64,000 bases of DNA from Eubacteriales bacterium (GCA_045586785.1 JAZNBA010000072.1:59197-123196); one strand, 5' to 3'; shown: positions 29,677 to 62,487, counted from the stretch's first letter. Numbers and translations: made by a program. The notes: a model not told the origin generated them from the letters alone.

Positions 29677-29751
29677 GGCCCGTTGGTCAAGCGGTTAAGA
29701 CACCGCCCTTTCACGGCGGTAACATGGGTTCGATTCCCGTACGGGTCACCA
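29677..29751 (+). tRNA. tRNA-Glu (anticodon TTC)
   Basis: GGCCCGTTGGTCAAGCGGTTAAGACACCGCCCTTTCACGGCGG...GGGTTCGATTCCCGTACGGGTCACCA. Starts directly after the CCA of tRNA-Met. Confidence 0.95.
29712..29751 (+). repeat. attL-side repeat (3' half of tRNA-Glu)
   Basis: CACGGCGGTAACATGGGTTCGATTCCCGTACGGGTCACCA. A degenerate copy lies at 55255-55283. Confidence 0.75.
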
Positions 29752-29755
29752 ATAG

Positions 29756-29808
29756 AAACAAATCCGAACTATTTCGTAACAAACGATGTGTTCGGATTTG
29801 TTTTTTAT
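29756..29808 (+). terminator. rho-independent terminator after the tRNA pair
   Basis: AAACAAATCCGAAC-N20-GTTCGGATTTGTTT followed by TTTT. Confidence 0.8.
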
Positions 29809-29845
29809 TTCAGTTATCCATATTAAAAGTTTAAGGGTGCAGGCA

Positions 29846-30097
29846 TCACGCCTGCACCCTCAGTTCTTTTTGTTGTTTTCGCTTGGCTTTCCACTCTTCA
29901 AAGTCCTTTACGTTTTCTTCTTTACTGAAATATTCAAGAATATACGGCAAGAAACTTCGAGCAAGAACCTCATATTCATAATCGGGAACCTTTGTAGGAA
30001 GATCAACGATTAAATCTTCACCTCCGGACAAGGCGAGCTTGTTACTAAGCAACCACAAACCCACATAATATAATTTTTTAAATAAGCTCAATAGCAT
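29846..30097 (-). CDS. small hypothetical protein of the mobilisation module
   Basis: 83 aa. 1-nt overlap with the upstream ParB-like gene. No motif recognised. Confidence 0.5.
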   Translation of the reverse strand: MLLSLFKKLYYVGLWLLSNKLALSGGEDLIVDLPTKVPDYEYEVLARSFLPYILEYFSKEENVKDFEEWKAKRKQQKELRVQA

Positions 30098-30996
30098 TAC
30101 CTCCCGTCTCTATCCCAACTGCTACGGCTCTGCACTTTGCTCTGTTCTTTCTTTTTCCACTCGGTTAAGATTCGCAGAATTGCGCTCTCTATATCCTTTG
30201 GTGTAGAATCGGGAAAGAATGTTCGAAGAGATTCCAAATCAAGCCTCAGCGTTTCTTTTTGATTAGGTTTTGGGCGGCTCATAACCTCGAACATCATATC
30301 CGCATCAAGCAACTGCATTGCACTCATTTCTTTTAGTTTTACCGCCTGCGAGAGCGACGGAGTTGCCTCGTAATCTTGAATCAGTTCGGCAAGAGCTTGC
30401 TGTTCTTCCTCCTTGAGATAAGATAATTTCTCGGCGGGAGTTAAAGCGATCTTGCCTTCATCCACTAAATCAAGTAGCGGCTTGATAAGCTTTGTCAGAC
30501 GGATATACCGCTTGATCGTGTCCTTGCTCGTGTTCTCTTGTTCCGCGATAATCTCGGTAGATAACTTCGGCGCAACTTGCTCCGAAGTTAAATCACTCCT
30601 TGCTCCCTGCCGTTTGAGTGCATCAAACTTCATTTTGTACGCGAAGGCTTTTTCCGACGGTAGCAACTGCTCTCTGTGAAGGTTGGAATCTACCATTGCA
30701 AGGATTGCCTCATCGTCATCCAAATTGCGAACGATTACGGGAATGTCCTCTATACCAAGACGCTTGCAGGCTTCATATCTGCGGTGTCCCGAAACGATCT
30801 CATACTTCGCTCCACCATCAATTGGATTGGGACGCACAAGGATCGGCACGATCACGCCGTACTCTTTGATGCTCTCCATAAGCTGCTGCATATCGCTGTC
30901 ATCTCGAACTTGAAACGGATGGTTGCGCATCGGTATAAACATATCTAAATTGTAATTAACGGTTGTTTCGATTCTTTTGTTAGAATTTGTTATCAT
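30097..30996 (-). CDS. ParB/Srx-like nuclease domain protein
   Basis: 299 aa. VPILVRP...YEIVSGHRRYEACKRLG ParB N-terminal box. Confidence 0.8.
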   Translation of the reverse strand: MITNSNKRIETTVNYNLDMFIPMRNHPFQVRDDSDMQQLMESIKEYGVIVPILVRPNPIDGGAKYEIVSGHRRYEACKRLGIEDIPVIVRNLDDDEAILAMVDSNLHREQLLPSEKAFAYKMKFDALKRQGARSDLTSEQVAPKLSTEIIAEQENTSKDTIKRYIRLTKLIKPLLDLVDEGKIALTPAEKLSYLKEEEQQALAELIQDYEATPSLSQAVKLKEMSAMQLLDADMMFEVMSRPKPNQKETLRLDLESLRTFFPDSTPKDIESAILRILTEWKKKEQSKVQSRSSWDRDGR

Positions 30997-32381
30997 CTTT
31001 GTTTGTCCTCATTTCTTTTAGTTTTAGATTGGATCTTCGCTCCCGTTTCTCTCGGGAACATTTCTTGTTCTTGCTCCATTTCAATGCGGAGCTTTTCTTT
31101 TAGGTTTTCGATCATCGGGAATACACCCTTAGCCAAGTTGATATCGTGGCGAAGCGCCTTGAGTTCTCTTGAGATCGCTTTACGTTTGCGGGAACATTCT
31201 TCTTTTTCGGCATCCGTGGTTGCTCTGCGGCGGCGGTTGTCGATCTTGTTACGTGCTGACAGTAACATAGCCATATCTGCTTCTTTCTCATCAATAAAGG
31301 TTTGAACCTTATCGACAGTACCGAGATCGTTACGATTGATGAGATTGACCGTTTCCATATAACGTTCTAAATAGATCTGCTCTTGACGCATTGCAGGCGA
31401 AAGCGGCTCTTGATAGTTTTCCATCTTCATTAGGTTGCCGCTTGTATCGATGCCAAAGAGTTCAAGCACAATCATAAAGATAAGTTCAATCGTGTTGTGC
31501 TGATCATAGCTCTTGCGACGTTGCCAAATCTCATAAAGCGGTGGGTGACTCGGATAGTACGGTGTTCGGTATTCTCGCCTTGACAAGATGCGCTTTTCAA
31601 TCGCTTCGGGGGTATAGCGCTCTCCGAGGTTGTCGATACGGATAGGGCGTTTCCATCCCTTTGCTATTACACAAGGATGCTTATAATCCTTTCCGCGAAG
31701 ATAGGTGTAACCACGCCTTGACAAAGCGAATTGAAAGTGCTGCGGCAAAATGCAATCAGCGATAGCATCGTCAATGTCCATCTTCAATAGCATTCTGTGC
31801 GACGGCTTACCTTTCTTCTCCGCCATATACGCGACGTATGGCGCGCGTTTCCGCTGTGGGTTCTGAATGATCGACAGACCGTGTTCTCGGCAAAGCTTGT
31901 CCGATTCGGGAGCCATCACCGTATCGTGATAGTACGGCGGGCAATGGAACTTTTCTCCGTCCTTGAAGCTCACGCTATTCAGAATAAAGTGGTTGTGCAG
32001 ATGCTCGTGATCTCGATGGCTCGTTACGAGAACTTCATATTTGTCACCCCATAATCGCTTGGCAAGCTCCACACCGAGCGCGTGGCATTGCTCGGGGGTA
32101 ACCTCACCGGGTTTGAAACTTTGGTATCCGTGGTAGGCGACGATGCCGCCGTACTTGCCGTACCGTCGCTTGGTCTCCATCATCCGCTCATAGGCAAGCT
32201 CCGGCAGGCAGTTGACACCACTAATCAGATACCGCTGTTCCGTCTTATCGGGGTTCTCCGCATAATCCATAAGACGCTTGAGATCTTCCTCATTGGGATT
32301 TGATGTCTTATCCGGATTAGCGGCATAATCAAGCGCATCCTTGATAGAGCGATGCACAGCCCATATTGACGTTACTGCCAT
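30993..32381 (-). CDS. relaxase / mobilisation nuclease (MobA/VirD2-type)
   Basis: 462 aa. Histidine triad HRDHEHLHNHFILNSV and N-terminal AVHRSIKDALDYAANPDKT. Confidence 0.85.
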   Translation of the reverse strand: MAVTSIWAVHRSIKDALDYAANPDKTSNPNEEDLKRLMDYAENPDKTEQRYLISGVNCLPELAYERMMETKRRYGKYGGIVAYHGYQSFKPGEVTPEQCHALGVELAKRLWGDKYEVLVTSHRDHEHLHNHFILNSVSFKDGEKFHCPPYYHDTVMAPESDKLCREHGLSIIQNPQRKRAPYVAYMAEKKGKPSHRMLLKMDIDDAIADCILPQHFQFALSRRGYTYLRGKDYKHPCVIAKGWKRPIRIDNLGERYTPEAIEKRILSRREYRTPYYPSHPPLYEIWQRRKSYDQHNTIELIFMIVLELFGIDTSGNLMKMENYQEPLSPAMRQEQIYLERYMETVNLINRNDLGTVDKVQTFIDEKEADMAMLLSARNKIDNRRRRATTDAEKEECSRKRKAISRELKALRHDINLAKGVFPMIENLKEKLRIEMEQEQEMFPRETGAKIQSKTKRNEDKQR

Positions 32382-32740
32382 TACGCGCCTCCCTTATAGA
32401 GATCGCGGATGAGATTTACGAGCTCGGCTCTCGTTTCGCCATCCGCTCCCGCGCAGATATTTTCGAGCCTTGCGATGGTCGGATACCAATCCATAGGTCT
32501 CTCTCGGCTCATCCTTGTGTTAACCGATTGACGAAGGTACTCGGATACCGTAATTCCTCGCTTTTCGGCCGCGCGTTCGATTTTTGCTTTATGATCCGTT
32601 GTAGTTTTGAAACGAATCACTTCTTCTTTTTTCTTGTTGTCGATAATGTTTTCCTCCATTCCTTTTGGTTTTGTTCGTTCATCCGAGGGTATTAGGGACA
32701 CCTCCCTAAAGTGTCTTTGCGCTGAGGCAAAGACGGGCAA
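32381..32740 (-). CDS. MobC-like relaxosome accessory protein (ribbon-helix-helix)
   Basis: IRFKTTTDHKAKIERAAEKRGITVSEYLRQSV. The true start may be the internal ATG at 32659. Confidence 0.65.
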   Translation of the reverse strand: MPVFASAQRHFREVSLIPSDERTKPKGMEENIIDNKKKEEVIRFKTTTDHKAKIERAAEKRGITVSEYLRQSVNTRMSRERPMDWYPTIARLENICAGADGETRAELVNLIRDLYKGGA

Positions 32741-32924
32741 GCTGGCGTAGCCACGTTTGCTATGCTTGTTACAGTATAGGACAGAGCCCTATACCGTAAG
32801 GTGGTCTATTACCCTCGTTCTTTCCCTTGAGCGTACCGCAGACTATGTTGAGCCTCCTTCCGTGAAGATTTACGGCGTGGTCTTGGGCGGTGTGCATAAG
32901 CACTATGTATGGAGGATTTTCGTT

Positions 32925-32953: not shown

Positions 32954-32987
32954 TCTCTATTTTGCTTCGTGCCATCTTGGCACAAGG

Positions 32988-33878
32988 TTATGATTCTTGT
33001 TCCGATTGAGGCTTGTCCGTATTAAGCGCGTCCAAAAGATCTTTTTCCACCTCATTCAAGTAATCACGGACTGCTTCAATTACAGATAATGTGCGAGGAA
33101 TGTACGCAGGATCAAGCCGTAGCTTGGGAAATCTTGAAAGGAAATTGTTCATACTGCTAATAAACATATTGGCATTTCCAACCATACTCACATTGGCAAC
33201 ACTTTCTTCAATGGGATGCGTTTCTTTCTCGTCTTCCTTTTTCTTTATCCCGCGTAGCTCGTCAATCATATCGGGAAGATCTTCTTTGTCCGCTTTCAGC
33301 AAAGCGATTACATCCTTATTTGTGGTATTGATAAAGCCACTTAAAATGTCTTTTTTTATACCGGGACAAACGCTATCCACAAAATCAAGAGCCTGCGCAT
33401 ATTGCTCGGCGCGTCTTACGTGTTTCTCACTCTTGCCGATTTCCTTGGCTATGCGCTCACTCGTTTTGAGCCTATCCTCCGGGTGGTCATTTTGTCCACC
33501 TGGGGCAAACCTGCCATTTTCATCGCGTTGCTTTTCAATTTGCTTCTCGACGGAATAGCGTTTGCCAAGCAAATATGCCTTCTGCTCGTCGCTCAAATTA
33601 CGCCTGCCAAGCTGATTCTTGCAGATCCAAGCAATAGCTTCGTAACGATTTTCAAAGTCAAGCTGCGTTGTCGTGAACGGAATATCTCCGTACTCACGGG
33701 CGATGCGGTAGCGGTTGTGTCCGTCCACAATGATGTCACCCCACACTGCAATAGGCATCATAATCCTGCCATCTTCCAAAATGTTTTCCTTAAGCTGCTG
33801 ATACTCGTCCTTGGTCAGCGGTGGAATAACCTTTTCAAATTCGGGTTCGATCTTCAATTGTTCAAGCATTTCGTTCAT
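32988..33878 (-). CDS. ParB N-terminal domain protein
   Basis: Start at MNEMLEQLKIEPEF (AAGGAG 9 nt upstream). MMPIAVWGDIIVDGHNRYRIA box. Confidence 0.7.
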   Translation of the reverse strand: MNEMLEQLKIEPEFEKVIPPLTKDEYQQLKENILEDGRIMMPIAVWGDIIVDGHNRYRIAREYGDIPFTTTQLDFENRYEAIAWICKNQLGRRNLSDEQKAYLLGKRYSVEKQIEKQRDENGRFAPGGQNDHPEDRLKTSERIAKEIGKSEKHVRRAEQYAQALDFVDSVCPGIKKDILSGFINTTNKDVIALLKADKEDLPDMIDELRGIKKKEDEKETHPIEESVANVSMVGNANMFISSMNNFLSRFPKLRLDPAYIPRTLSVIEAVRDYLNEVEKDLLDALNTDKPQSEQES

Positions 33879-34055
33879 TCTGTTTTTCTCCTTCAAAATT
33901 TGTTTTTTCAACTTCGGTGCAAATTGCACCGAAGTCCTCTCACTAATATACCGTATCGAAAATGCGAAATTTGTCCTGAATCTCAAAAAATTTTTTCAGC
34001 CCTCACTTCAGCGCAACTTGCTCCGAAGTTTTTTGGAGGAAAAAGAAAAAAGCCA

Positions 34056-34094
34056 TTTCGCACATTTGCCGACAATTGGCAAAAATGGTAAAAT
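34056..34094 (+). promoter_or_regulatory. promoter of tnpV-like gene with conserved upstream motif
   Basis: TTTCGCACATTTGC motif overlapping -35 TTGCCG, then 17 nt, then TAAAAT. The same architecture occurs at 53401-53439. Confidence 0.55.
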
Positions 34095-34132
34095 GACTTT
34101 GTAAAAAATATTTGATTGGAGGAGATTTGATT

Positions 34133-34483
34133 ATGGAACTCACCCACACCGAAAGAAACGGCATTATGTATCCCGACTTGGCACTCCCCGAGCAGACCAA
34201 TTACCCCATCGGCAAGTACGGCAGAATGCGCCTCAACTATCTCAAAAAGCATCGCCGCGGCACCTACACCACGCTTCTCACCTCGTGCACGCTCAATCAG
34301 CATCTCTATGAAACCGAGCAGGAGGTACAGCGGCAGATCGACCTCACCCTATCACGGTTGGTAAAAGAGCTCGGCATCACCGAAGAACTTAAAGTTTCTA
34401 ACCTTCTTCAGTGGGTACAAGAAATGAACAACGCGAAACAAAGCGCGGAGGAAATCGTGCTGAATGAAATAATCTGCAAATAA
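34133..34483 (+). CDS. TnpV-like transposon-encoded protein
   Basis: MELTHTERNGIMYPDLALPEQTNYPIGKYGRMRLNYLKKHRRGTYTTLL is typical of the TnpV family as I recall it from Tn4451-type elements. Confidence 0.7.
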   Translation: MELTHTERNGIMYPDLALPEQTNYPIGKYGRMRLNYLKKHRRGTYTTLLTSCTLNQHLYETEQEVQRQIDLTLSRLVKELGITEELKVSNLLQWVQEMNNAKQSAEEIVLNEIICK

Positions 34484-34634: not shown

Positions 34635-35549
34635 ATGCTTTATAAGGAATGGCTATCAAATTGGCTTGAAAATTACGTTAAAACCTCGGTAAAGGAGCGA
34701 ACGTATGTAAAATATGCAGATATCGTAAGAATCAGATTGTTCCCCGCACTTGGCGATTATGAATTGAATGATCTAACCCCCTTCAACGTTCAACGGTACA
34801 TAACAGAACTGTTGCATCACGGTAACTTGAAAAACGGCGAAGGATTGTCTGCAAACACGGTGAATTTGATTATTGCCGTCATACAAAGCTCAATGGAAAC
34901 GGCGCATTCCATCGGACTTACGGATGAATACAAGATGAATAAAATAAAACGCCCGAGGGTGCAGGAAAAACAAATCTCTTGTTTTTCTCCCTCGGAGCAA
35001 AAAATGATAGAGCAAGCGGTACTCGCTGACAAGCGCAGCAAGATGATCGGCATTTTGATATGCCTGTACACCGGCTTGCGCGTGGGAGAACTGCTTGCTC
35101 TTGAATGGACGGACATTGATTTTAGTAAAAACGAGCTTTCGGTAAACAAAACTTGTCACGACAAAGGGAAATCAAGAGTTACGACCACTCCAAAAACAAT
35201 ATCCTCGGTTCGGATCATCCCTATTCCAAAACAACTCGTTCCACATTTAAAGCCACTTAAAAAGCGAAGTAAAAGCCAATACGTTATATCCGAAAACGGC
35301 ACGTATATTTCGGTTCGATCATATCAGCGGAGCTTTGAACTGCTGTTAAAACGGCTTGGAATCGCTCATCAAGGCTTTCATTCTCTGCGACACACCTTTG
35401 CAACAAGGGCATTGGAGTGCGGAATGGATGTCAAAACGCTCTCGGAGATCCTCGGACATAAAAACGCGACGGTCACACTCAATCGCTATGCCCATTCACT
35501 GATGGATCACAAACGAGAGATGATGAACCGCCTTGGAAAACTGATGTAA
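34635..35549 (+). CDS. tyrosine-type site-specific recombinase/integrase
   Basis: 304 aa. SAM-like N-domain. Catalytic region ...GLRVGELLAL...HSLRHTFATRAL...LGHKNATVTLNRYAHS (R, HxxR, Y). Confidence 0.9.
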   Translation: MLYKEWLSNWLENYVKTSVKERTYVKYADIVRIRLFPALGDYELNDLTPFNVQRYITELLHHGNLKNGEGLSANTVNLIIAVIQSSMETAHSIGLTDEYKMNKIKRPRVQEKQISCFSPSEQKMIEQAVLADKRSKMIGILICLYTGLRVGELLALEWTDIDFSKNELSVNKTCHDKGKSRVTTTPKTISSVRIIPIPKQLVPHLKPLKKRSKSQYVISENGTYISVRSYQRSFELLLKRLGIAHQGFHSLRHTFATRALECGMDVKTLSEILGHKNATVTLNRYAHSLMDHKREMMNRLGKLM

Positions 35550-35556: not shown

Positions 35557-35584
35557 CACCTAACAATCTATTAGGTGAACAAAA
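35557..35584 (+). repeat. inverted repeat, left copy (IR-L)
   Basis: CACCTAACAATCTATTAGGTGAACAAAA. Its reverse complement matches 35689-35716 at 27/28 positions. Confidence 0.9.
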
Positions 35585-35604
35585 CAATATACTAACCCAT
35601 TATT

Positions 35605-35633
35605 ATTCTACCACAATACTCGCTTTTTTTCAA
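35605..35633 (-). promoter_or_regulatory. promoter inside the IR-flanked segment, currently facing the integrase 3' end
   Basis: Minus strand TTGAAA-17 nt-TAGAAT with TG extended -10. Confidence 0.5.
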
Positions 35634-35688
35634 TACATAGGAAGAAAAATTTACATATTTCTCCTCTATAGATGAACATCTCACGGAT

Positions 35689-35716
35689 TTTTGTTCACCT
35701 AATAGATTGTTACGTG
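35689..35716 (-). repeat. inverted repeat, right copy (IR-R)
   Basis: TTTTGTTCACCTAATAGATTGTTACGTG. Also part of a local 14-bp hairpin, 35684-35727. Confidence 0.9.
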
Positions 35717-35788: not shown

Positions 35789-37759
35789 ATGTGTAAGTAT
35801 GAAGTGCCCAGTTCAGAATTAATGCGGAATATCAATTCGATGATTAAACCCTACGGAGTGAAGTATTTTGTCTCTGAAGAAAAATTCAATAATAACGAAA
35901 GCTGCTTTCCAACATTTGCTCGGAAGCCTGCTTCTGATGAGGACATTGCTAAATATGTGACCCATTACGGTTTGAGTCGCTATACAAAAGCCAACCAAAA
36001 AGCATTATTGGAATATTTTTGGGACGATTATCGTACTTTTTTCGGACGAGAACACGACAGAATAATTTGCACCAACTCTTTCCGTCGCTTGCAATATAAA
36101 ACGCAAGTTATGGTTAACTCTGCATCCGACGAGCAAAGAACAAGACTGTTGCATTCCTCGGAGGTTCAGAGAATCGCTAAAAAGATAGCCATTGGTGTTG
36201 GAGCCAATGCGGAATTGTCAGAAAATATAGCAATTGCTCACGATATTGGTCATGCTCCTTTTGGTCATAGTGGCGAGGAAGCAATTAGTGACTACATACT
36301 CGATATGTTCGAAAAAATCCCATCGCATTCAATTAAGAGTGGAACCACTTGTTTCTTACATGCAATGCAAAGCACCAAAGTGTTAGATTATATTGCTACC
36401 CATCCTACACTTCAGGAGAATGGTATAAATGGCTTGGGACTTTCAGATTATGTTTTAGAAGGAGTTTTGAAGCATGATTCTGATGTGTTTGCGGAGGAAA
36501 TCATAGCTGCACCCTTAAAAAAGCAGTACGATCCGGAAAGGCTGTGCGGTATTGTAGGCATCGGATCATACGAGGAAGTTAAGCGTAAGTTGCAGACATA
36601 CAATATAAAAAATAATGTCTTCATAGATACATATCCCCAAACATTTATCGGTAGCATTGAATCTCAAATTGTTGCTTGGGCTGATAAGATTGCATACCTT
36701 GGACACGATTGGGAAGAATTTTTGGATAATAAACTTCTTGAAAAATTAATGTCGAGAATCAATGATATGATTCACAAGATGTTTGAAGTTTCTTCGAAAA
36801 TTGCAGACACAAACGAAAAATTCTACATTGATACTATTTGTTTCAGACTTAAAGAGATTGAAGCCATATATTCAACTCTTGATGATACTGAAAAGGCAAA
36901 TAAAACTTTTGGTTGGAAAAAGGTTTATCAAGAATTATTGCGCATCATCGAGATTATTGAAAAAATTGAATCCGAGAACAAATTCGACCATTTCTCATCA
37001 AAAGAATATAGAGCTTTGAAAGACTATTTTGTTATGGTAATTAGTTGGACAAAGTTGCTGGACAAATATCCCTCCCCCCAAGCACTTAAATATGATCCCA
37101 TTTATATTTTCTATTTGTATTTGTCTGAGGTCAGAACAACAAATATAACAAAAAATGTTACAGAGAAAATTATCTCTGGATCCAACAGTATCCTTTCATC
37201 ACACAATTTCAACACAAGAGAAGAGTATTTATTGCACTGTAATCAAAAATGGGTTGAAGTTTTTAATAAAATCTTGTCTAACACAAGTCTTGATGAAAAA
37301 TCCAAGAAAAAGCAATTGAAAGACAGTATTCGCACTTGTTTTTTAGTTCAATTTGGTTCAGAGCAAACAAAAAACAACATCGTTAACATTGATTATAATC
37401 CTGATGTAATAAAGAAATCCAATACAGGATATTATTCTTTCGATGATACATACTGTTGCTTATTAAACATCATAGGTTGCATTTTTAGTCAATATATTAA
37501 AAGTACCCGTGTTAATTTTATGACTCAGAAGGCGAAAAGAATTGTTGCGGGATTGATGGAATATTACGTTAACCATCCCGAAATGCTCCCGTATTCTCAA
37601 CGAAGAAAGAATAACTTAAGCGATACCGATGAAGAACTTATTTATTTTATTGCAGATTATGTTGGTGGTATGACCGATCGTATGGCTAAGAAAAAATATG
37701 ATGAAATTATGTCATCGGATACCAAGTGGAGTAATGAATACAGTAGCGGCTTGAATTAA
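35789..37759 (+). CDS. dGTPase-like HD-domain (dNTP triphosphohydrolase family) protein with long C-terminal extension
   Basis: 656 aa. REHDRIICTNSFRRLQYKTQV, RTRLLHSSEVQRIAKKIA and AHDIGHAPFGHSGEE blocks. About 28 % GC on a sampled line. Confidence 0.8.
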   Translation: MCKYEVPSSELMRNINSMIKPYGVKYFVSEEKFNNNESCFPTFARKPASDEDIAKYVTHYGLSRYTKANQKALLEYFWDDYRTFFGREHDRIICTNSFRRLQYKTQVMVNSASDEQRTRLLHSSEVQRIAKKIAIGVGANAELSENIAIAHDIGHAPFGHSGEEAISDYILDMFEKIPSHSIKSGTTCFLHAMQSTKVLDYIATHPTLQENGINGLGLSDYVLEGVLKHDSDVFAEEIIAAPLKKQYDPERLCGIVGIGSYEEVKRKLQTYNIKNNVFIDTYPQTFIGSIESQIVAWADKIAYLGHDWEEFLDNKLLEKLMSRINDMIHKMFEVSSKIADTNEKFYIDTICFRLKEIEAIYSTLDDTEKANKTFGWKKVYQELLRIIEIIEKIESENKFDHFSSKEYRALKDYFVMVISWTKLLDKYPSPQALKYDPIYIFYLYLSEVRTTNITKNVTEKIISGSNSILSSHNFNTREEYLLHCNQKWVEVFNKILSNTSLDEKSKKKQLKDSIRTCFLVQFGSEQTKNNIVNIDYNPDVIKKSNTGYYSFDDTYCCLLNIIGCIFSQYIKSTRVNFMTQKAKRIVAGLMEYYVNHPEMLPYSQRRKNNLSDTDEELIYFIADYVGGMTDRMAKKKYDEIMSSDTKWSNEYSSGLN

Positions 37760-39388: not shown

Positions 39389-39398
39389 GGACAAAACC

Positions 39399-39626
39399 AT
39401 GTTAGATAAAGTAATTTCCATCATCAGCGAATATCAGGACATCCCTGCAGACACCATTCACGCCGATAGCCACCTCGTCAATGACCTCGGCTTCACCTCC
39501 TACGACGTGGTCAGCCTCGTCGGAAAATTTGAGGACGAGTTTGACATCGAAGTCCCCGACAGAAAGATCAAGCTCATGAAAACCGTGGACGATATCGTAA
39601 AATTCATCGAGGCAGCAATAGAATAA
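39399..39626 (+). CDS. acyl carrier protein
   Basis: 75 aa. LVNDLGFTSYDVVSL phosphopantetheine-site block. Confidence 0.85.
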   Translation: MLDKVISIISEYQDIPADTIHADSHLVNDLGFTSYDVVSLVGKFEDEFDIEVPDRKIKLMKTVDDIVKFIEAAIE

Positions 39627-39698
39627 TTATTGGTTCTATAAACACTAACCATACAAACACACATAACATTCATATAAAAAGAAATAGGAGAATGAACA

Positions 39699-40244: not shown

Positions 40245-40258
40245 AGGGAGGATATTAT

Positions 40259-40969: not shown

Positions 40970-41041
40970 ACGCTTTCACGTTGAATGTAGTGAAATCAAT
41001 TGAATTTCTACGAGGATTAATCAAAAAATAGATAGGTAAAT

Positions 41042-48559: not shown

Positions 48560-48563
48560 TGCT

Positions 48564-49331
48564 ATGAAAACAGCAATTATTACTGGCGCATCTTCCGGCG
48601 TTGGCACGGAATTTTTGAAAGTGCTTGTTCATGATAACAGCATCGAAGAATTTTGGATCATCGCAAGAAACGAAAAACGCCTTGAAGAATTAAAAGCACA
48701 ATATTCCAATAAAAGTATCGTTTGCATACCTCTTGATTTGACAAACGAAGAATCAATGCAGGTATATGAAAATCACCTCCGTGCAAAAAAGCCGGAGGTG
48801 GTGACCCTTGTTAATAATGCGGGATTTGGTATTTTAGGAGAGGTATATGGTTCGGATTATGTAGAGCAAGCGAAAATGGTAGATTTGAATTGTCGCGCTC
48901 TCACAACCATTACAACAATAACCTTGCCGTACATGACTGAAAATTCGGGAATCATCAATATGGCTTCTATTGCTGCATACTGCCCAAATCCGAATTTTAC
49001 GGTTTATTGTTCTGCCAAAGCATACGTATTGAGCTATTCTCGTTCATTGCGTTATGAACTGAGAATGAAAAAACGCAAGATCAATTCTCTTGCCGTTTGT
49101 CCCGGACCTATGAACACAAACTTTTGCGCTACTGCAGGAATCACAACACAGTTTGATGCCTTGCCGTTCACTGATCCTGCCAAAGTTGCTAAAACCGCTG
49201 TCAAGAAACTTCGTGAAGGAAAAGCCGTCTATACGCCCGGTGTATTCTTTAAATTTTATCGTTGTATTGCTAAATTACTTCCACACTCGCTTGTGATGGG
49301 ATTTAGCCAAACGATTAAAGATGGAAAATAA
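48564..49331 (+). CDS. short-chain dehydrogenase/reductase (SDR)
   Basis: Start at MKTAIITGASSGVGTEF (AAGGAG upstream). NNAG and YCSAKAY motifs. Confidence 0.85.
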   Translation: MKTAIITGASSGVGTEFLKVLVHDNSIEEFWIIARNEKRLEELKAQYSNKSIVCIPLDLTNEESMQVYENHLRAKKPEVVTLVNNAGFGILGEVYGSDYVEQAKMVDLNCRALTTITTITLPYMTENSGIINMASIAAYCPNPNFTVYCSAKAYVLSYSRSLRYELRMKKRKINSLAVCPGPMNTNFCATAGITTQFDALPFTDPAKVAKTAVKKLREGKAVYTPGVFFKFYRCIAKLLPHSLVMGFSQTIKDGK

Positions 49332-50481
49332 TGAATATATAGATACGAACAGAGCATGGGCTGAAATCGACATAACTAAAGCAAAGGAAAATTATTTTTC
49401 CATAAAGAAATGTCTTAAGCCCCAAACCCAAATATGCTGTGTAGTGAAAGCCAACGCCTACGGTCACGGCTCTGTTCGTATGGCTCAGTTATATGAGTCA
49501 CTTGGTGCAAATTACTTGGCTGTTGCTACGATTGAAGAAGCTCTGCAACTTCGTCAAGCCCCAATAAAGCTACCGATACTAATATTGGGATATACCGCAC
49601 CGCAATATGCAGATGTTCTATCCGATAACGATATTACACAGTGCGTATATTCATTAGACTACGGTCGAGCTTTGTCAAGTTGCGCTACAGAAAAAGGCAA
49701 ACCCGTAAAAGTACATATTAAAATTGATACGGGAATGGGTCGCATTGGATTTCGATACGTTGGCGGCGATGAGCAAGAATTAACAGATGCGCAAACTGTA
49801 TGCCGAATGCAAGGGTTGACTGTAGAAGGTATTTTTACTCACTTTTCGTCTGCTGATGATGAAATAGGTTCTGATGAAACAACAGAGCGACAGTATCAAT
49901 ACTTCTTAGAAGCAATTTCATATTTGGAAAAGCGAGGCATTCAATTTTCTATTCGCCACTGTTCCAATAGTGCTGCAATCCTTAAATATCCCCATACGCA
50001 GCTCGATATGGTACGTGCTGGTATTTCCTTGTATGGATTGGATGCTGATAATTTATTTTCATGTCAAACAAATCTGCATCAGATACTCCAACTAAAAACA
50101 ATAGTTAGCCATATAAAGCTAATCCATAAAGGAGATACTATTGGATACGGTCGGTAATATGTTGCAGAAAAGGACACAATTATCGCAACTCTTCCAATTG
50201 GATATGCGGATGGTCTGTGGAGAGCCAATTCGCGTCACGGAATGCTTGTGAATATTAACGGTGAGTACGCACCCATTATTGGACGAATTTGTATGGATCA
50301 ATGTATGATTGATGTCACAGCGTTGAAAGAAGTAAATGTCGGCGATATTGTTACGGTATATGGTGATAGTGAAATCAACTCAATAGATAAAATTGCAGCA
50401 ATAAACAAAACTATCAGCTATGAGATTGTTTGTAGTGTTAGCGAAAGAGTACCAAAATTTTATGTTAATAACGATTTGTGA
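49321..50481 (+). pseudogene. alr: alanine racemase interrupted by one in-frame TAA (50155-50157)
   Basis: VVKANAYGHG PLP-Lys motif. ...[33 protein letters not shown]... continues in the same frame (50242 minus 49321 is a multiple of 3). Confidence 0.8.
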
Positions 50482-51085
50482 TTTATCCTCGTATTCAGAT
50501 GAGCAATATCAAAATGACCTAACCACAATTCCAGTATGGCGAAGAGAAAAGGCATTGCAATACAAAAAGCTCGATGACCGCAAGCGTTCGGTCTTGGCTT
50601 TCGTGCTATTGCAGCGCGCTCTGCGTGATGAATATGGTATTACCGAGATTCCCGAATTTGTATATAACGAGTTCGGGAAACCCTCGTTGCTGAATCTGCC
50701 CATCCATTTCAGCTTGAGCCATTGTAAAGATGCCGTTGCTTGTGCCGTATCTGATCACAATATCGGTATCGACGTGGAAAGCATCGTGCCGTATAATCCC
50801 GATGTCGCTCGGAGAGTTTGCACGGCAGCAGAGCTTGAAATGCTTGAACAGAGTGATGACAAGGACGTGGAGTTCATCAAGCTTTGGACGGTTAAAGAAG
50901 CAATCTCAAAGTATGAGGGAATGGGATTGTCGTTGCCGTTTGCAGAGATTGATACGATGAATTACTTACTCTGCTCAAACGTAAGTGTTAATAGCAGATA
51001 TGTACTAAGTATTTGCTATGGAAAACGAACCGACACCCTTGCCCTTCCGCGCATCAAAATGCTATCCGCAACTGATTTAATATGA
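50462..51085 (+). CDS. Sfp-type 4'-phosphopantetheinyl transferase
   Basis: FSLSHCKDAVACAV..IGIDVE and KLWTVKEAISKYEG motifs. The start is uncertain (50420 or 50462) and overlaps the alr 3' end. Confidence 0.8.
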   Translation: MLITICDLSSYSDEQYQNDLTTIPVWRREKALQYKKLDDRKRSVLAFVLLQRALRDEYGITEIPEFVYNEFGKPSLLNLPIHFSLSHCKDAVACAVSDHNIGIDVESIVPYNPDVARRVCTAAELEMLEQSDDKDVEFIKLWTVKEAISKYEGMGLSLPFAEIDTMNYLLCSNVSVNSRYVLSICYGKRTDTLALPRIKMLSATDLI

Positions 51086-51185: not shown

Positions 51186-51224
51186 TCCAATACATACTGA
51201 AACATTATGTTTCTTGGAGGGTTT

Positions 51225-51839
51225 ATGAGAAGAAAAGACGAATCAAAAAAGAGTGTGATACTTGATTTCATCGACGAGTATTACAACGAATATAACGAGA
51301 TCCCTGCCGTAAGAACAATCGCAGAGGGCACGGGAATTGCTTTAGCAACCGTGCATCGTTATCTGCTGTCGCTCAAAGAAAGCGGCGAACTTGAATACAA
51401 CGGTCGCAAGTCGATCTCCACCAAGCGCATTGATTTGGAATCGCGTCACGCTTCTGCTCCCGTTCTCGGTTACGTCCGCTGCGGCGAAGGCGAAGAAGAA
51501 ACAGAGGAAGTCATCGAGTATATCCGTCTCCCCGAAAGCTTAGTTGGCACGGGAGAATTCTTTGTACTGATAGCAAAGGGTGATTCTATGGTGGATGCAG
51601 GCGTTAATGAGGGTGACTATGTCGTTATCCGAAAGCAGAATACCGCTAATGAAGGAGATTATGTTGTTGCACTATATGAGGGACTTAACAATCTGAAAGA
51701 GCTTGCACGTGGTGATAACGGCAGATACATTCTCCGATCTTGTAATGAGGATAAGGCGACCTATCCCGATATCTACCCAAACGATTTGAGAATACAAGGG
51801 GTAGCCGTTTGTGTAATGCATAAATTATTAAGGAGGTAA
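51225..51839 (+). CDS. LexA-like S24 peptidase repressor
   Basis: Winged-HTH N-terminus (RTIAEGTGIALATVHRYLLSLKESGELE). The GDSM serine and a Lys 37 residues later match the E. coli LexA S119/K156 spacing. Confidence 0.85.
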   Translation: MRRKDESKKSVILDFIDEYYNEYNEIPAVRTIAEGTGIALATVHRYLLSLKESGELEYNGRKSISTKRIDLESRHASAPVLGYVRCGEGEEETEEVIEYIRLPESLVGTGEFFVLIAKGDSMVDAGVNEGDYVVIRKQNTANEGDYVVALYEGLNNLKELARGDNGRYILRSCNEDKATYPDIYPNDLRIQGVAVCVMHKLLRR

Positions 51840-51845
51840 AAACTA

Positions 51846-52718
51846 TTGGCTGAAGAAAGAACTATTCAACAAAATGCGGATGAATTGGTCACCGCACTTG
51901 TAAATACAATCGGTAACGGATCTGTGCAGGAAGTAGTTGATAAGAATCGCGACGATGCGCTCGATATATCAAACATTGCGGTCAACCTTCCTCTCAAAGA
52001 AATGCCACCCGAAGTGGTAAAATATCTCAAAGACCTCGTACAAACCGTTAAAGGAACAAGTATGGATACACGCCACGATTTGAGCTTGGCATTCCCTCCC
52101 TCTCATTTTTCGGGCGAAGATAATCCGCTGATGCTTTTCTACAAAGCGTTTTACGACACCGTTACTTATTATACTACACTTATTCAAAGTGTTCCCGAGG
52201 TTCGCGACGCGCTGATAAGGGCAATGGCAGATAAGGGGTATAACGAGGATAATATCGATGAGTTTCTAAAGCGGGAGTGGGACATCAACGCCTATTTGAT
52301 GAACTTGCCTCAGATTGCGGAGATTTTCAAAGAGTTACCAGACTATTCCGATTACAACCACGGAAAGCCTAATAATTATTCTCTACAAAATGCGAAACGT
52401 AAAATTGAACATATGAGTGGCGGTCAACTTGTTGAGAAAGTATCAATTGAGCGTGGCGGTCCTAAGGATGCAAGCGGACAGTATACGCCCTATCCTTTGG
52501 ACGACGAAACCGACGTTACTACGGAAGTCATCGACAAAATATATCTTGAACAATGTCTTGCTCTGCTTTCACCCGAAGACCGTGAGCTCTTGGTACGTCA
52601 CGCCAACGGCGAAACTTATACCGCGCTTGCCAAAGACTACGGATATGCCAATGCAAGCGGTGTCAGAAAACGTATTGAGAGAATTAAAAAACAGATAACT
52701 AATGCATTTGCTGAATAG
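51846..52718 (+). CDS. sigma-70 region-4 / LuxR-type HTH domain protein with unknown N-terminal domain
   Basis: TTG start 9 nt after AAGGAGG. C-terminal LSPEDRELLVRHANGETYTALAKDYGYANASGVRKRIERIKKQI. No region 2 recognised. Confidence 0.55.
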   Translation: MAEERTIQQNADELVTALVNTIGNGSVQEVVDKNRDDALDISNIAVNLPLKEMPPEVVKYLKDLVQTVKGTSMDTRHDLSLAFPPSHFSGEDNPLMLFYKAFYDTVTYYTTLIQSVPEVRDALIRAMADKGYNEDNIDEFLKREWDINAYLMNLPQIAEIFKELPDYSDYNHGKPNNYSLQNAKRKIEHMSGGQLVEKVSIERGGPKDASGQYTPYPLDDETDVTTEVIDKIYLEQCLALLSPEDRELLVRHANGETYTALAKDYGYANASGVRKRIERIKKQITNAFAE

Positions 52719-52727
52719 GAGATAGAC

Positions 52728-53399
52728 ATGACAATTAATAGTATTAGTAGTGATGTAAAATTCCCGGATATGGAATTTTATAATATGAGCACCCCCGGTG
52801 AGATGGCATTATACCTTGCTCACTGTGATTTTTATCCATTCCAAAGCGTTTTGAGAAACAATCAACTTGCGTTAGATGCACTATCTCAAGGATATCGAGA
52901 AATGCTACAAAAGGCACAAGCCAGCGATGATTTTTACACAGAATCTTTTGCTATGACAAGTGGTACATTACACAATTCTCGTGTCAGTTTGCTAACTTAT
53001 TATTCGTTAGTTTTGACTATGGTGTCCATCTTGGAAGAATCAGTAAATACATTGTGTAGAGTATACTACAATATGCTAACGCTGAAAAAACAGCTTAGTG
53101 ATATAAAGGGGCGAGGATTAGAGCGTGCAGCAGAATACTTAAAAAAAGAAGTAGGCATTGAAGGTTTTACCTCAGACCCCCAATGGGAATATATTACAAC
53201 TATTCGTGATGCAAGAAATATGATTGTTCATAACGGCGGACGAGTAATCAAAGATTTTGATAAATTTGATAAATTCAAAATTGGATATAGAGAAGAAGAC
53301 CACCAATTATATTTTGAATACAGCGATATTGAAAAAATGTATAATGCCATTCTTGAATATATTGATAGAGCTTTTAGACTTGTTCCTACAAAAAAATAA
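52728..53399 (+). CDS. hypothetical protein, possible HEPN-type domain
   Basis: 223 aa with RBS AGGAG. Helical. ITTIRDARNMIVHNGG contains an R-x4-H motif in HEPN-like context. Confidence 0.4.
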   Translation: MTINSISSDVKFPDMEFYNMSTPGEMALYLAHCDFYPFQSVLRNNQLALDALSQGYREMLQKAQASDDFYTESFAMTSGTLHNSRVSLLTYYSLVLTMVSILEESVNTLCRVYYNMLTLKKQLSDIKGRGLERAAEYLKKEVGIEGFTSDPQWEYITTIRDARNMIVHNGGRVIKDFDKFDKFKIGYREEDHQLYFEYSDIEKMYNAILEYIDRAFRLVPTKK

Positions 53400-53400
53400 T

Positions 53401-53439
53401 TTTCGCACATTTGCGAGATTTTCATCACTGTGTTAAAAT
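53401..53439 (+). promoter_or_regulatory. promoter of the serine recombinase gene with conserved upstream motif
   Basis: TTTCGCACATTTGC overlapping -35 TTGCGA, then 17 nt, then TAAAAT (TG extended). Confidence 0.55.
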
Positions 53440-53460
53440 GAGAGCGAAAGGGGTGATTCT

Positions 53461-55350
53461 ATGACAGGCGTTATTTATGCACGATATTCCTCGGACAACC
53501 AACGCGAAGAATCGATAGAAGGTCAGCTTCGTGAATGCACGGCGTTTGCACAAAAGAACGATATAACGATCATTGAGCATTATATAGACAGAGCATATTC
53601 TGCCAAGACAGACAACCGTCCCGAGTTTCAAAGAATGATACGCGAGAGCGCGCGGAAAGCATATGATGTGGTAATCGTATGGAAACTTGACAGATTTTCG
53701 AGAAACCGTTTCGACTCTGCAAAATACAAAGCTGCATTGAAAAAGAACAAGATTCGCGTTATTTCCGCCACAGAAGCGATCTCCGATGGAGCAGAAGGTA
53801 TTATTCTTGAATCCGTGTTGGAAGGCATGGCAGAATACTATTCAGCAGATCTTTCGGAAAAGGTTACAAGAGGTCATACTGAAAACGCCCTCAAATGTCA
53901 GTTCAACGGCAGTGTTGTTCCTTACGGATACGTTATCGACAAGGAGAAGCATTATCAACTTGATCCCGAGAAAGCACCTATCGTTCTTGAAATCTTCAAA
54001 CGATACACAAGCGGCGAAACGATTACCGCTATTACAAAAGATCTTAATGCAAGGGGACTAAGAACAGCTAAAGGAAATGAATTCAACAAGAACAGCCTTC
54101 ACCATATGTTGAAAAATCGTAATTATATCGGTGAATATCGCTACAAGGATTTCGTTACACCCGGTGGAGTGCCTGCTATAGTTCCCGAGGATATCTTCAA
54201 TCGCGCGGTTTCCCTTATGGAAAGCAACAAACACGCGCCTGCGCGTAAGAAAGCCAAAGAGGATTACCTGCTAACAACCAAGCTTTTCTGCGGGAATTGC
54301 CTTGCTATGATGATTGGCGAAAGTGGTCAGAAAAGCAACGGGAATATTTATCGTTATTACAAATGCGCGGGTGCCAAGAAGCACGTTTGCGATAAGAAAA
54401 CCGTTCGCAAAGAATGGATAGAGGATATCGCGTTACAGTTAACGATGAAGATATTGATGAGCGATGAGGACCTTCAAAAGATCGCTGATAGAATTATGGA
54501 GCTTCAAAAGACAGAAAACATGATGATACCTGTGTTGGAACGTCAATTAGAGGCTGTCCGCGCTTCTATCGATAATATTCTTAAAGCCATTGAGATGGGT
54601 GTTTGCACTCGTTCAACCAAAACGCGCCTCGAAGAACTTGAGACGGAGGAAGAACGGATTAAGGGCGATATTTGCCGTGAGCAGTTGGATTCCCGACTTG
54701 TCACCGAAGATCAGATTTGGTATATCTTTGATAAATTCCGCCAAATGGATTTATCAATGCCCAAGCAACGCCAACGTCTGCTTGACAGTTTTCTGCAATC
54801 AATCGTTCTTTTTGATGATAAACTTATTATCTCGTTTAATTATCGTAGTCAACCCGTTACCATTATGCTCGATCAGTTGGTCGATTTTATTAACGGAAGC
54901 GGTTCGGATTTGGTAAGCGCTGCTTCACCAAAACAAAACAGGAGCACTTTGTGCTCCTGTTTTGTTTTGGTGACCCATGTTCGTCAAGACAAGCCCGCAA
55001 AATGCGCAGCATTTTGCAAATTGGCGCTTTGCGCCAATTTTTTCGATAGCCGCAATAGCGGCGTCCCGTACGGGCAGGAGCACAAAGTGCTCCTGTTTTG
55101 TTTTGATAACCCAGTCACCGAAGAAGAACCACACGTTGCCCGCCGAAGCGGTCAACTTACCGAGTTTTGCTTCGCAAAACATCGCCTCAATTTGCGAAGC
55201 AATTTCACAGCGTGTGCGCAGGGAAGAAGAACGCGTGCAGAGAATAATGGCGCACACGGCGGTTCAGATTCCCGTACGTGTCAGATCTGTGTCACTGTCA
55301 CAATCCAAAGATACCGCCGAAAGAGACCAAACGGTCACTCTCGGCGGTAA
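53461..55350 (+). CDS. large serine recombinase (3' end uncertain)
   Basis: VIYARYSSDNQREESIEGQ catalytic Ser region, DRFSRN, recombinase domain, Cys-rich zinc ribbon (CGNC...CAGAKKHVC), coiled coil. Recognisable similarity ends near nt 54915. The remaining ~140 codons run through palindromes and the att remnant. Confidence 0.8.
   Translation: MTGVIYARYSSDNQREESIEGQLRECTAFAQKNDITIIEHYIDRAYSAKTDNRPEFQRMIRESARKAYDVVIVWKLDRFSRNRFDSAKYKAALKKNKIRVISATEAISDGAEGIILESVLEGMAEYYSADLSEKVTRGHTENALKCQFNGSVVPYGYVIDKEKHYQLDPEKAPIVLEIFKRYTSGETITAITKDLNARGLRTAKGNEFNKNSLHHMLKNRNYIGEYRYKDFVTPGGVPAIVPEDIFNRAVSLMESNKHAPARKKAKEDYLLTTKLFCGNCLAMMIGESGQKSNGNIYRYYKCAGAKKHVCDKKTVRKEWIEDIALQLTMKILMSDEDLQKIADRIMELQKTENMMIPVLERQLEAVRASIDNILKAIEMGVCTRSTKTRLEELETEEERIKGDICREQLDSRLVTEDQIWYIFDKFRQMDLSMPKQRQRLLDSFLQSIVLFDDKLIISFNYRSQPVTIMLDQLVDFINGSGSDLVSAASPKQNRSTLCSCFVLVTHVRQDKPAKCAAFCKLALCANFFDSRNSGVPYGQEHKVLLFCFDNPVTEEEPHVARRSGQLTEFCFAKHRLNLRSNFTACAQGRRTRAENNGAHGGSDSRTCQICVTVTIQRYRRKRPNGHSRR
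54926..54972. repeat. perfect 22-bp-stem hairpin (47 nt)
   Basis: CACCAAAACAAAACAGGAGCAC-TTT-GTGCTCCTGTTTTGTTTTGGTG. Confidence 0.95.
54939..54977 (+). repeat. 39-nt direct repeat, copy 1
   Basis: CAGGAGCAC-TTT-GTGCTCCTGTTTTGTTTTGGTGACCCA. Confidence 0.85.
55075..55113 (+). repeat. 39-nt direct repeat, copy 2
   Basis: CAGGAGCAC-AAA-GTGCTCCTGTTTTGTTTTGATAACCCA. The loop is inverted and there are 2 mismatches. Confidence 0.85.
55255..55283 (+). repeat. attR-side remnant of the tRNA-Glu 3' half
   Basis: CACGGCGGTTCAGATTCCCGTACGTGTCA. The ungapped core GATTCCCGTACG(G/T)GTCA matches tRNA-Glu at 16/17. With a 9-nt gap, 27 of 29 nt align. Confidence 0.75.
55313..55348 (-). terminator. terminator of the ECF sigma operon
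   Basis: ACCGCCGA...TCGGCGGT stem with a T-run on the minus strand. Confidence 0.55.
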
Positions 55351-62486: not shown

Positions 62487-62487
62487 T

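Follow-up and report, generated by a model that had tools for sequence, protein, structure and literature searches.

Integration into tRNA genes by serine recombinases has been called rare, with the actinomycete integrative and conjugative elements (AICEs) of Mycobacterium at tRNA-Leu and phage phiRSM1 at tRNA-Ser as examples (PMC3218068), and a large survey of large serine recombinases (LSRs) contains no mention of tRNA targets (PMC10083194). Here we analyze a genomic island in a stretch of 64,000 nucleotides from a Eubacteriales bacterium (GCA_045586785.1, JAZNBA010000072.1:59197-123196), called the window below, with positions counted from its first letter. Window positions 29752-54930 very probably constitute a single integrative mobilizable element (IME) of 25,179 bp, inserted at the 3' end of tRNA-Glu(UUC) by its own LSR (53461-54930). 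Serine-recombinase IMEs at tRNA genes are rarely documented, and the island is a clean case of this rare but already known kind.

The closest analogue is found in the ssrA islands of Dehalococcoides (PMC3146451). These are also integrative and mobilizable, with a CcrB-like LSR, DsiB, at the 3' end of a tRNA-like gene (encoding transfer-messenger RNA [tmRNA]), variable cargo, a ParB-domain core protein, and tandem relics of earlier insertions downstream. They differ in their target, ssrA, and in the 20-bp direct repeat that each carries, whereas the window island lies at tRNA-Glu and has 7 nt common to its left (attL) and right (attR) junctions. Moreover, the Dehalococcoides integrase lies beside attL on the reverse strand and is accompanied by a second small serine recombinase, while the window island has a single LSR at attR, the 3' codons of which are also the P arm of the attachment site, and possesses a MobA/VirD2 relaxase. 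The serine-recombinase IMEs of Firmicutes (Tn4451/Tn4453 and streptococcal elements) are similar in combining one LSR with a relaxase module, very short end repeats, and no pore; among them, Tn4451 has low target specificity and the site-specific ones disrupt protein genes such as rumA (PMC5704250). The window element, in contrast, sits at the extreme 3' end of a tRNA gene that is left intact. The AICEs and phiRSM1 are precedents for tRNA use, albeit from other phyla and with other recombinase lineages (the phiRSM1 enzyme is small and resolvase-like).

With the phage LSRs (A118/LI, Bxb1, and phiC31; model in PMC3783163), the window recombinase shares the domain set, the inverted outer motifs of its predicted attachment site, and a motif that is 5 bp closer in the chromosomal site (attB); the element itself is a mobilizable island rather than a phage. 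Classical tyrosine-integrase islands (Islander database, PMC4383910) are reminiscent of our locus in their tRNA 3' address, compositional contrast, hotspot relics, and presence/absence polymorphism. Such islands split and regenerate the tRNA gene, and the displaced fragment marks the far boundary. No tRNA fragment marks the far boundary of the window island at 54930, and those in its vicinity do not come from this insertion.

Empty sites define the boundaries of the island

The features at the target and at the two junctions are the following.

29600-29676, plus strand: tRNA-Met(CAU), chromosomal, directly abutting tRNA-Glu (ARAGORN; Rfam RF00005); the same pair occurs in contigs L089, L090, and L004
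29677-29751, plus strand: tRNA-Glu(UUC), intact after insertion (ARAGORN and Rfam); 75/75 identical in L004
29746-29752, plus strand: attL copy of TCACCAA, the sole sequence common to both junctions (comparison of attL, attR, and L089)
29752-29865, plus strand: left end of the island, absent from empty sites, conserved to about 29860
53461-54930, plus strand: conserved part (490 aa) of the LSR, with Resolvase, Recombinase, and Zn-ribbon domains (Pfam and NCBIfam)
54903-54931, plus strand: attR, with the P half-site in the last codons of the recombinase (TTCG at 54903-54906, 24 nt before the end of CCA) and TCACCAA at 54925-54931
54931-54977, plus strand: chromosomal B' side and native tRNA-Glu terminator hairpin, predicted from the window and observed in L089
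55064-55113, plus strand: relic, 11 nt of the tRNA-Glu 3' end joined to the second terminator-hairpin copy; part of the native chromosome, present in L089, L090, and (as TCCCGTACGGGTCAACAAAACAAAAAAGGAGCAC) L004
55255-55283, plus strand: relic, a decayed 3' half of tRNA-Glu; native chromosome, present in L089 (as CACGGCAGTTCAGATTCCCGTACGGGTCA) and L090
55357-56289, minus strand: YfjL_N-domain protein (Pfam), a right-flank chromosomal gene, followed by anti-sigma and extracytoplasmic function (ECF) sigma genes; 100% identical on the empty-site contigs

An empty allele, in which tRNA-Glu is joined directly to the counterpart of window position 54931, is present in L089 and L090, which represent the same species in two independent metagenome samples, and in L004, from a related species. 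The island therefore comprises 29752-54930 (25,179 bp). L089 and L090 were found through a search with the right-flank YfjL_N protein, which returned P0175 (100% identical) on both contigs; their DNA is 94-95% identical to the window. L089 positions 1-1789 align to window 56766-54925 (94.6%) and L089 positions 1777-2687 to window 29758-28848 (95.5%), and since these two alignments overlap in TCACCAA, window 29751 is joined to 54931. The L089 sequence accordingly reads tRNA-Glu GGGTCACCA and then AAACAAAACAGGAGCAC... Joining the tRNA end to 54931 predicts a perfect palindrome with 26-nt arms (GGGTCACCAAAACAAAACAGGAGCAC / GTGCTCCTGTTTTGTTTTGGTGACCC), three pairs longer than in the occupied state, and this palindrome is seen in L089. 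L004, a 64-kb contig, was reached with a left-flank protein (P0122, 88% identity) and carries the same upstream genes and the same tRNA pair; its tRNA-Glu is followed by AAAA, the hairpin, about 90 nt with 80% identity to window 54960-55047, and then TCCCGTACGGGTCAACAAAACAAAAAAGGAGCAC.

All three empty sites lack the whole 25.2 kb at once, and presence or absence of the island thus varies within the species. The boundaries and the polarity of the insertion are read directly from these alleles. Three further left-flank contigs of the same species (L006, L007, and L008) are interrupted within the tRNA genes and give no information on the junction. The attB/attR pattern TCACCAAAACAAAACAGGAGCAC had no match in Joint Genome Institute (JGI) metagenome contigs, a scan of genome contigs with the left-flank protein found no relative, and no identical record was returned by exact-sequence look-ups of two left-flank proteins (592 aa and 467 aa), the recombinase open reading frame (ORF; 629 aa), and the relaxase in a collection that does not appear to include the window genome. 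Excision at 29751/54931 would produce the element site (attP) ...GGTAAGCGCTGCTTCACCAATAGAAACAAATCCGAAC... and the attB ...CCCGTACGGGTCACCAAAACAAAACAGGAGCAC...

The preliminary description of the window had placed a 25.5-kb island at 29712-55283, taking the tRNA-derived repeat at 55255-55283 as its far end. A site-specifically integrated, compositionally distinct, and mosaic island at the tRNA-Glu 3' end is upheld by the empty sites, the GC content, and the tetranucleotide composition. The extent is not: the true right junction is at 54930, within the conserved 3'-terminal part of the recombinase gene and 353 bp short of 55283. In the same way, alleles without the island do exist, as that description had anticipated, but they join tRNA-Glu to 54931 and not to about 55284. 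Nor do the junctions show the long direct repeat of a classical tRNA-integration footprint. They share only TCACCAA, and therefore the tRNA is intact and no long repeat is made; the crossover took place within this heptanucleotide.

tRNA-like relics to the right of the island

The tRNA segment 29712-29751, its partial copy at 55255-55283, and the 11-mer at 55064-55074 are exactly where the preliminary description had reported them. The last 40 nt of the tRNA gene align to 55261-55283 as GGTTC[A]GATTCCCGTACG[T]GTCA with a local score of 34. In 60 block-shuffled 64-kb windows, searched on both strands, the maxima had a mean of 23.8 (standard deviation, 2.1) and reached 29 at the highest, so the repeat at 55255-55283 is not due to chance. 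The 11-mer TCCCGTACGGG occurs in the window only at 29735 and 55064; its score of 22 is not significant by itself, and we consider it real because it is homologous to the empty-site contigs.

These repeats had supported the idea of a 25.5-kb tyrosine-integrase island with the decayed tRNA repeat as attR and the copy at 55064 as a trace of serial integration. The island does encode a tyrosine recombinase (34635-35549), and the 55255-55283 repeat, besides being statistically real, starts in the anticodon loop like many tyrosine-integrase att copies. Yet L089 and L090 retain the counterpart of 54931-55356 with both tRNA-like fragments, which means that the insertion ends at 54930 and that the repeat is a conserved feature of the unoccupied chromosome. 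Furthermore, the tyrosine recombinase, an Xer-like enzyme, is encoded 5 kb into the island and adjoins neither junction, and what the junctions share is 7 nt rather than a tRNA half. Extremely improbable on these grounds, a tyrosine-integrase origin is already refuted for this island by L089 and L090. Both fragments are older relics of a tRNA-Glu hotspot and not the attR of the island inserted by the LSR.

The proposal that the two att-like cores at the right end are remnants of older events thus stands, although neither bounds the present island, both being present in empty alleles. Its support comes from L092, a contig of a different species, where the sigma/anti-sigma/YfjL_N block is syntenic and adjoins tRNA-Glu(CUC). 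Downstream of this tRNA come a hairpin, a spacer, and GGTTCAGATTCCCGGATGGGTCACCA plus AACGTAACAAATCCGAAC...GTTCGGATTTGTTTTTT, a 26-nt tRNA fragment carrying a P'-type arm. Fragment and arm are 80% identical to window 29727-29826 and sit at the position of the window relic 55255-55283.

The relics of L092 (10895-11000), the window (55255-55283), and L089 (1495-1525) have in common a 1-nt insertion, GGTTC[A]GATT, and each nevertheless matches the acceptor stem of its own neighboring tRNA-Glu (UUC versus CUC). The shared insertion together with the local acceptor match suggests gene conversion or a common mechanistic origin. A 24- to 26-nt tRNA-Glu 3' fragment with a P' arm recurs without an intact tRNA in the IMG/VR loci L097 and L115, as in the L092 relic.

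The large serine recombinase ends at the right junction

The recombinase has an N-terminal resolvase domain (PF00239, 4.3e-29, residues 4-143), with the N terminus VIYARYSSDNQ bearing the nucleophilic serine motif, followed by PF07508 (2.6e-17) and a zinc ribbon (PF13408, 7.4e-09). Its best NCBIfam matches, CcrB and XisF, are both far below the equivalog cut-offs. This domain set, the short predicted attP and attB with minimal identity, and the outer motifs shifted by 5 bp are those expected of an LSR.

The full recombinase ORF spans 53461-55350 (629 aa), of which homologues cover roughly the first 78-80% only. In an alignment with nine close homologues (68-96% identity), conservation extends in every sequence as far as the invariant A488-S489-P490, beyond which the tails are unrelated and differ in length. 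The codons of these three residues are GCT TCA CCA (nt 54922-54930), and the tRNA-Glu 3' end reads GGG TCACCA. The right junction therefore coincides with the end of recombinase conservation, which, along with the 7 nt shared by the junctions, is the signature of an LSR rather than a tyrosine integrase. The window, L001, and L002 have the same final 30 nt, up to and including TCACCA (GGTTCGGATTTGGTAAGCGCTGCTTCACCA), while the recombinase proteins of the latter two are 96% and 78% identical to that of the window, respectively; a nucleotide end more conserved than the protein would be expected of a binding site. The exact 30-nt P arm had no match in viral contigs, and in genome contigs it had one, a 4.5-kb contig of a metagenome-assembled genome that ends 18 nt past the site. 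The excised form of the recombinase is predicted to have 514 aa with a different 24-aa tail; homologue tails are likewise unrelated and of varying length.

In the integrated state, the ORF happens to stay open for another 139 codons of chromosomal DNA, a stretch that includes two terminator hairpins and both tRNA relics. Such a lengthening by unrelated codons might be expected if the island were a fixed, immobile relic, or if the "empty" alleles had arisen by precise deletion rather than being ancestral, and the lack of a detected circular junction in the JGI metagenomes and of an identified directionality factor points the same way. On the other hand, the ORFs of the recombinase, the relaxase, and the accessory protein are all intact, presence or absence varies within one species, and the empty state also occurs in a second species (L004). 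In addition, the empty state restores the perfect palindrome with 26-nt arms, which fits an ancestral site or an exact site-specific excision but not a random deletion. We consider a fixed relic or a deletion origin of the empty alleles quite improbable.

Window 54920-55114 forms a long composite palindrome, in which the two copies of the terminator hairpin are both direct and 40-nt inverted repeats (90% complementary). They flank a hairpin-rich spacer of 115 nt, and this arrangement is kept in L004 and L089. An Rfam scan of 54800-55500 gave only spurious microRNA-type matches, caused by the long palindromes.

The left end of the island and the geometry of the att sites

The B half-site of attB and attL consists of the T-arm and the acceptor 3' end of tRNA-Glu, with TTCG at 29729-29732, 19 nt before the end of CCA. 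On the island side, the left end carries the P' half-site ATAGAAACAAATCCGAAC, in which CGAA lies 13 nt after CCA, the +13 spacing of the recombinase family. It also carries a terminator-like hairpin (ACAAATCCGAAC..GTTCGGATTTGT) with a T run, which replaces the terminator of the tRNA. The left end is 79-84% similar to sequence adjoining tRNA-Glu or recombinase ends in L002, L092, L097, L115, L119, and L123. Among these, the attL-type loci L119, L123, L097, and L115 are 79-81% similar to window 29677-29823, and hence the left-end hairpin is borne by the element and conserved among elements in different hosts. The alternative that the hairpin at 29759-29802 is the native terminator, with the island starting further right, was ruled out, since the native terminator in L004 and L089 is the hairpin found in the window at 54939-54959.

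Half-sites were surveyed in 80 IMG/VR loci encoding recombinase relatives of 42-57% identity. TTCG with exactly 24 nt ending in CNCCA was found in 50 of the 80, and CGAA follows exactly 13 nt after CCA in 21 of these 50. The attP reconstructed for the window (54903-54930 plus 29752-29769) has the same 24 + 13 geometry and contains the inverted pair GTTCGGATTTG / CAAATCCGAAC; the predicted attP would measure 45 bp, counted from the outer TTCG through the outer CGAA motif. The tRNA half-site has the spacing TTCG-N19, 5 bp closer than the TTCG-N24 of the P arm. The same 5-bp offset is seen in one subgroup of the relatives, which overlaps tRNA-Glu(CUC) on the antisense strand and has CGAA at +8 instead of +13. 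When the center is placed at the TC of TCACCA, the P-type arms measure 18.5 nt and the tRNA-type arms 13.5 nt on either side. From this symmetry, the crossover would involve TC (29746-29747) as the central dinucleotide. In serine integrases, the motif bound by the zinc-ribbon domain is shifted 5 bp inward in attB compared with attP (PMC3783163), and the 5-bp offset between the window P arm and the tRNA corresponds to this shift. The use of CGAA at +13 versus +8 as a classifier of any junction was dropped, since many loci lack CGAA or have other spacings; the motif is retained as supporting geometry only.

Pairs of attP and attL in related elements

A scan of IMG/VR for GGGTCACCA-N10-ATCCGAAC gave 30 loci, and pairs of attP and attL are observed across the family. 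One P' arm (TTGGACGCAAATCCGAAC...; TTGGACGC[A/G]AATCCGAACA...) has three kinds of upstream neighbor. It follows GTGTTCGGATATAGGGCGTGTTGGGTCACCA in eight contigs, six of which hold an LSR gene that ends there (about 40% identical to that of the window in five of them), the remaining two being too short. The same P' arm follows tRNA-Glu(UUC) in L102, L112, and L121, where the 3' half of the tRNA is identical to that of the window and L112 has the same tRNA-Met/tRNA-Glu pair, and it follows tRNA-Lys(UUU) in L094 and L108. In these related phage elements, the arm at the 3' end of an LSR gene represents attP, and at the 3' end of tRNA-Glu or tRNA-Lys, attL; the position of TTCG differs by 5 bp between the two. 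We know of no description of a T-arm serving as a B-type half-site, or of an attP P arm inside the integrase coding sequence.

In L001 (1-7100), the 96%-identical recombinase and the same right-end module accompany different cargo at a different chromosomal site; the cargo includes sigma-70-like proteins of 1051 aa and at least 549 aa and an ABC_ATPase protein. In L002 (5330-5470 and 14942-15080), the recombinase (78% identical) ends in TCACCA and is followed by a homologue of the window left end, with CGAA at +9. L002 also contains a tRNA-Glu whose downstream hairpin shows a P'-like spacing (+14). This arrangement could reflect tandem accretion or a relic target.

Gene content and composition

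The ORFs of at least 70 aa in the 29.8- to 55.3-kb interval were all compiled, and those likely to be genes were searched with Pfam, PADLOC, PHROGs, and NCBIfam. The genes between the two ends had been described as mobilization, recombination, or cargo genes, and the profile scans confirm this.

29846-30097, minus strand: 83-aa ORF, no family match (Pfam, PHROGs, NCBIfam)
30097-30996, minus strand: ParB-like protein with ParB_N and HTH_ParB (Pfam, 4.7e-19)
30993-32381, minus strand: MobA/VirD2-type relaxase (Pfam PF03432, 1.9e-35)
32381-32740, minus strand: NikA-like relaxase accessory protein (Pfam PF21983, 2.5e-08)
32988-33986, minus strand: 332-aa protein, weakly ParB-like (PHROGs, 1e-06; no Pfam match)
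34112-34483, plus strand: 123-aa conserved mobile-element protein (phrog_24764, 3.3e-31)
34635-35549, plus strand: internal Xer-like tyrosine recombinase, 304 aa (Pfam, NCBIfam, PHROGs)
35557-35716, no strand assigned: 28-nt inverted repeats (96% complementary) around a 104-nt segment, with a minus-strand promoter-like TTGAAA-17-TAGAAT with TG (10/12)
35789-37759, plus strand: HD / HD_assoc dGTPase-like protein, 656 aa (Pfam; PADLOC dGTPase, 1.8e-55)
37781-51085, plus strand: nonribosomal peptide synthetase (NRPS) cargo cluster, reductase terminated (Pfam), comprising the next seven entries
37781-39388, plus strand: stand-alone adenylation enzyme (Pfam)
39399-39626, plus strand: carrier protein (Pfam), with an exact copy in another metagenome sample (L093)
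39699-40969, plus strand: two proteins of no assigned family
41042-48559, plus strand: 2505-aa NRPS with two condensation (C), one adenylation (A), and two thiolation (T) domains and a terminal reductase (Pfam)
48522-49331, plus strand: short-chain dehydrogenase/reductase (SDR) (Pfam)
49321-50157, plus strand: Ala_racemase_N protein (Pfam)
50420-51085, plus strand: phosphopantetheinyl transferase (PPTase) (Pfam)
51207-51839, plus strand: LexA/CI-like S24 repressor, first gene of the right-end module (Pfam, PHROGs)
51846-53399, plus strand: two conserved proteins of 290 aa and 223 aa, the first with a weakly sigma-70 region-4-like C terminus

The island thus contains its own integration module and a relaxase with an accessory protein, and no type IV secretion system, coupling-protein, or VirB4 domain was found among its scanned ORFs; these features together identify it as an IME. 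Capsid, terminase, tail, and lysis genes were likewise not found by the Pfam scans or by PHROGs searches of the unassigned ORFs, the phage-like genes being only the CI/LexA-like repressor and the recombinases, and from this content the island does not appear to be a prophage. The 83-aa, 181-aa, 236-aa, and 223-aa proteins gave only weak matches in PADLOC, PHROGs, and NCBIfam. An overlapping minus-strand ORF (33983-34303) was rejected as a gene in favor of 34112-34483 on account of the phrog_24764 match of the latter.

Three copies of a 26-nt palindromic repeat, ACTTCGG.GCAA.TTGC.CCGAAGT, lie inside or beside the two ParB-like genes (30564-30589, 33911-33936, and 34005-34030) and could be parS-like or related to the origin of transfer (oriT). 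The segment at 35557-35716, between the Xer-like gene and the dGTPase and NRPS genes, could be an invertible promoter that now points away from the cargo, or an operator. The dGTPase-like protein is a candidate anti-phage defense cargo. Reductase-terminated NRPS clusters of gut Clostridia make dipeptide aldehydes. In the right-end module, the 290-aa and 223-aa proteins are candidates for a regulator or a directionality factor. L001 likewise has a LexA-like gene, two uncharacterized genes, and the recombinase in this order, and the 290-aa gene region matches L001 9052-9918 with 86% nucleotide identity.

The GC content is 42.0% in the island, 49.3% in the left flank, and 45.3% in the right flank, and the tetranucleotide distance between island and left flank is 0.31, compared with 0.10 between the halves of the left flank. 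The six GC counts of single 60-nt lines made previously were all reproduced. By module, the GC content is 45.5% for mobilization, 37.0% from the tyrosine recombinase to the dGTPase, 42.1% for the NRPS cluster, and 41.2% from LexA to the LSR.

This mosaic raises the possibility that at least two elements accreted between one pair of LSR junctions, for instance mobilization genes with the tyrosine recombinase (29.8-35.7 kb) joined to an NRPS-bearing LSR element, and that the parts may move separately. The differences among the four modules are consistent with such a history, as are the second recombinase with its flanking inverted repeats, the presence in L001 of the right-end module only, with other cargo, and the tandem arrangements that L002 suggests for this recombinase family. 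Modular exchange of cargo between elements, however, accounts for the mosaic equally well. The 25.2 kb are missing as a unit from each of the empty sites, the P' arm of the left end has the exact family spacing for this LSR, and the interior of the island showed neither an att-like TCACCA/P' junction nor a tRNA fragment. Taken together, accretion seems unlikely, though less so than a fixed relic, and a single element moved by the LSR is the reading that we retain.

In the chromosome to the right, window 57393-63879 contains four tandem paralogous B12-binding radical S-adenosylmethionine genes (about 450 aa each) and a 354-aa gene, beside the ECF sigma, anti-sigma, and YfjL_N genes. This region may be a peptide-modification cluster; its GC content is 41-48%, below that of the left flank. 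The left flank contains a tetrahydrofolate riboswitch (13468-13566; Rfam RF01831, 84.5 bits).

Discussion

We propose that the LSR encoded at 53461-54930 recombined attP with attB at the extreme 3' end of tRNA-Glu(UUC). The T-arm and acceptor end of the tRNA would provide the left half-site of attB, while the left half-site of attP would be written in the last ten codons of the recombinase itself (GSDLVSAASP). With only TCACCAA common to attP and attB, such an event would preserve the tRNA without creating a long repeat; the element would supply a replacement terminator hairpin behind the tRNA, and at the right junction the recombinase ORF would run on into chromosomal DNA. Once excised, the island might be nicked at an oriT by the MobA/VirD2 relaxase and its NikA-like partner, and the resulting circle might be transferred by way of a pore supplied by a conjugative element in the same host. 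The pieces of tRNA-like sequence at 55064 and 55255 are fossils of earlier hotspot events that predate the island. Present-day excision and mobilization are, in this proposal, predicted activities, to which the presence/absence variation within the species and the occurrence of the carrier-protein gene in another sample lend indirect support only.

Several observations weigh against this view. No excised circle or attP junction of the island was found, the junction pattern TCACCAATAGAAACAAATCCGAAC (attL/attP) having no match in JGI metagenomes, and no other occupied allele containing both ends of the island was recovered. The B' side in the window has no CGAA at +8, making attB asymmetric. Along with the GC mosaic, the internal Xer-like tyrosine recombinase leaves room for a composite history; its gene, the only one of this kind in the island, is separated from the left junction by 4.9 kb and from the right one by 19.4 kb. 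In L002, the recombinase end is joined to a P'-like sequence with +9 spacing, which the simple model does not explain. Finally, no recombination directionality factor was identified among the island genes, and no oriT was mapped.

As a genomic island, the element is ordinary; it is instructive for the logic of boundaries and for the family-wide use of a tRNA end as an attB half-site. An island located at a tRNA gene need not end at a nearby tRNA-derived repeat, and tools that search for displaced tRNA fragments would overlook serine-recombinase islands at such genes or give them the wrong size. Now that its boundaries are exact, the unit of 25,179 bp, with a predicted attP and attB of about 50 bp each, suits tests of NRPS-cluster mobility in uncultured Clostridia.

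The recombinase may also belong to a widespread, little-described LSR clade, found in Clostridia phages and mobilizable islands, whose B-type half-site, in either orientation, is made up of the near-universal tRNA T-arm (GTTCGA) and the acceptor/CCA end, with the P arm encoded by the conserved C-terminal codons of the recombinase itself (GSD...SP). We regard the arguments for and against this wider reading as evenly balanced. If true, it would explain how close enzymes land on tRNA-Glu(UUC), tRNA-Glu(CUC), and tRNA-Lys(UUU) without ever disrupting the tRNA, as well as why the recombinase tails differ between the integrated and excised states and why relics accumulate at tRNA-Glu loci. If this family-level pattern holds, these enzymes would recognize a sequence that is present in every bacterium, which would bear on host range and on the use of the enzymes as integration tools.

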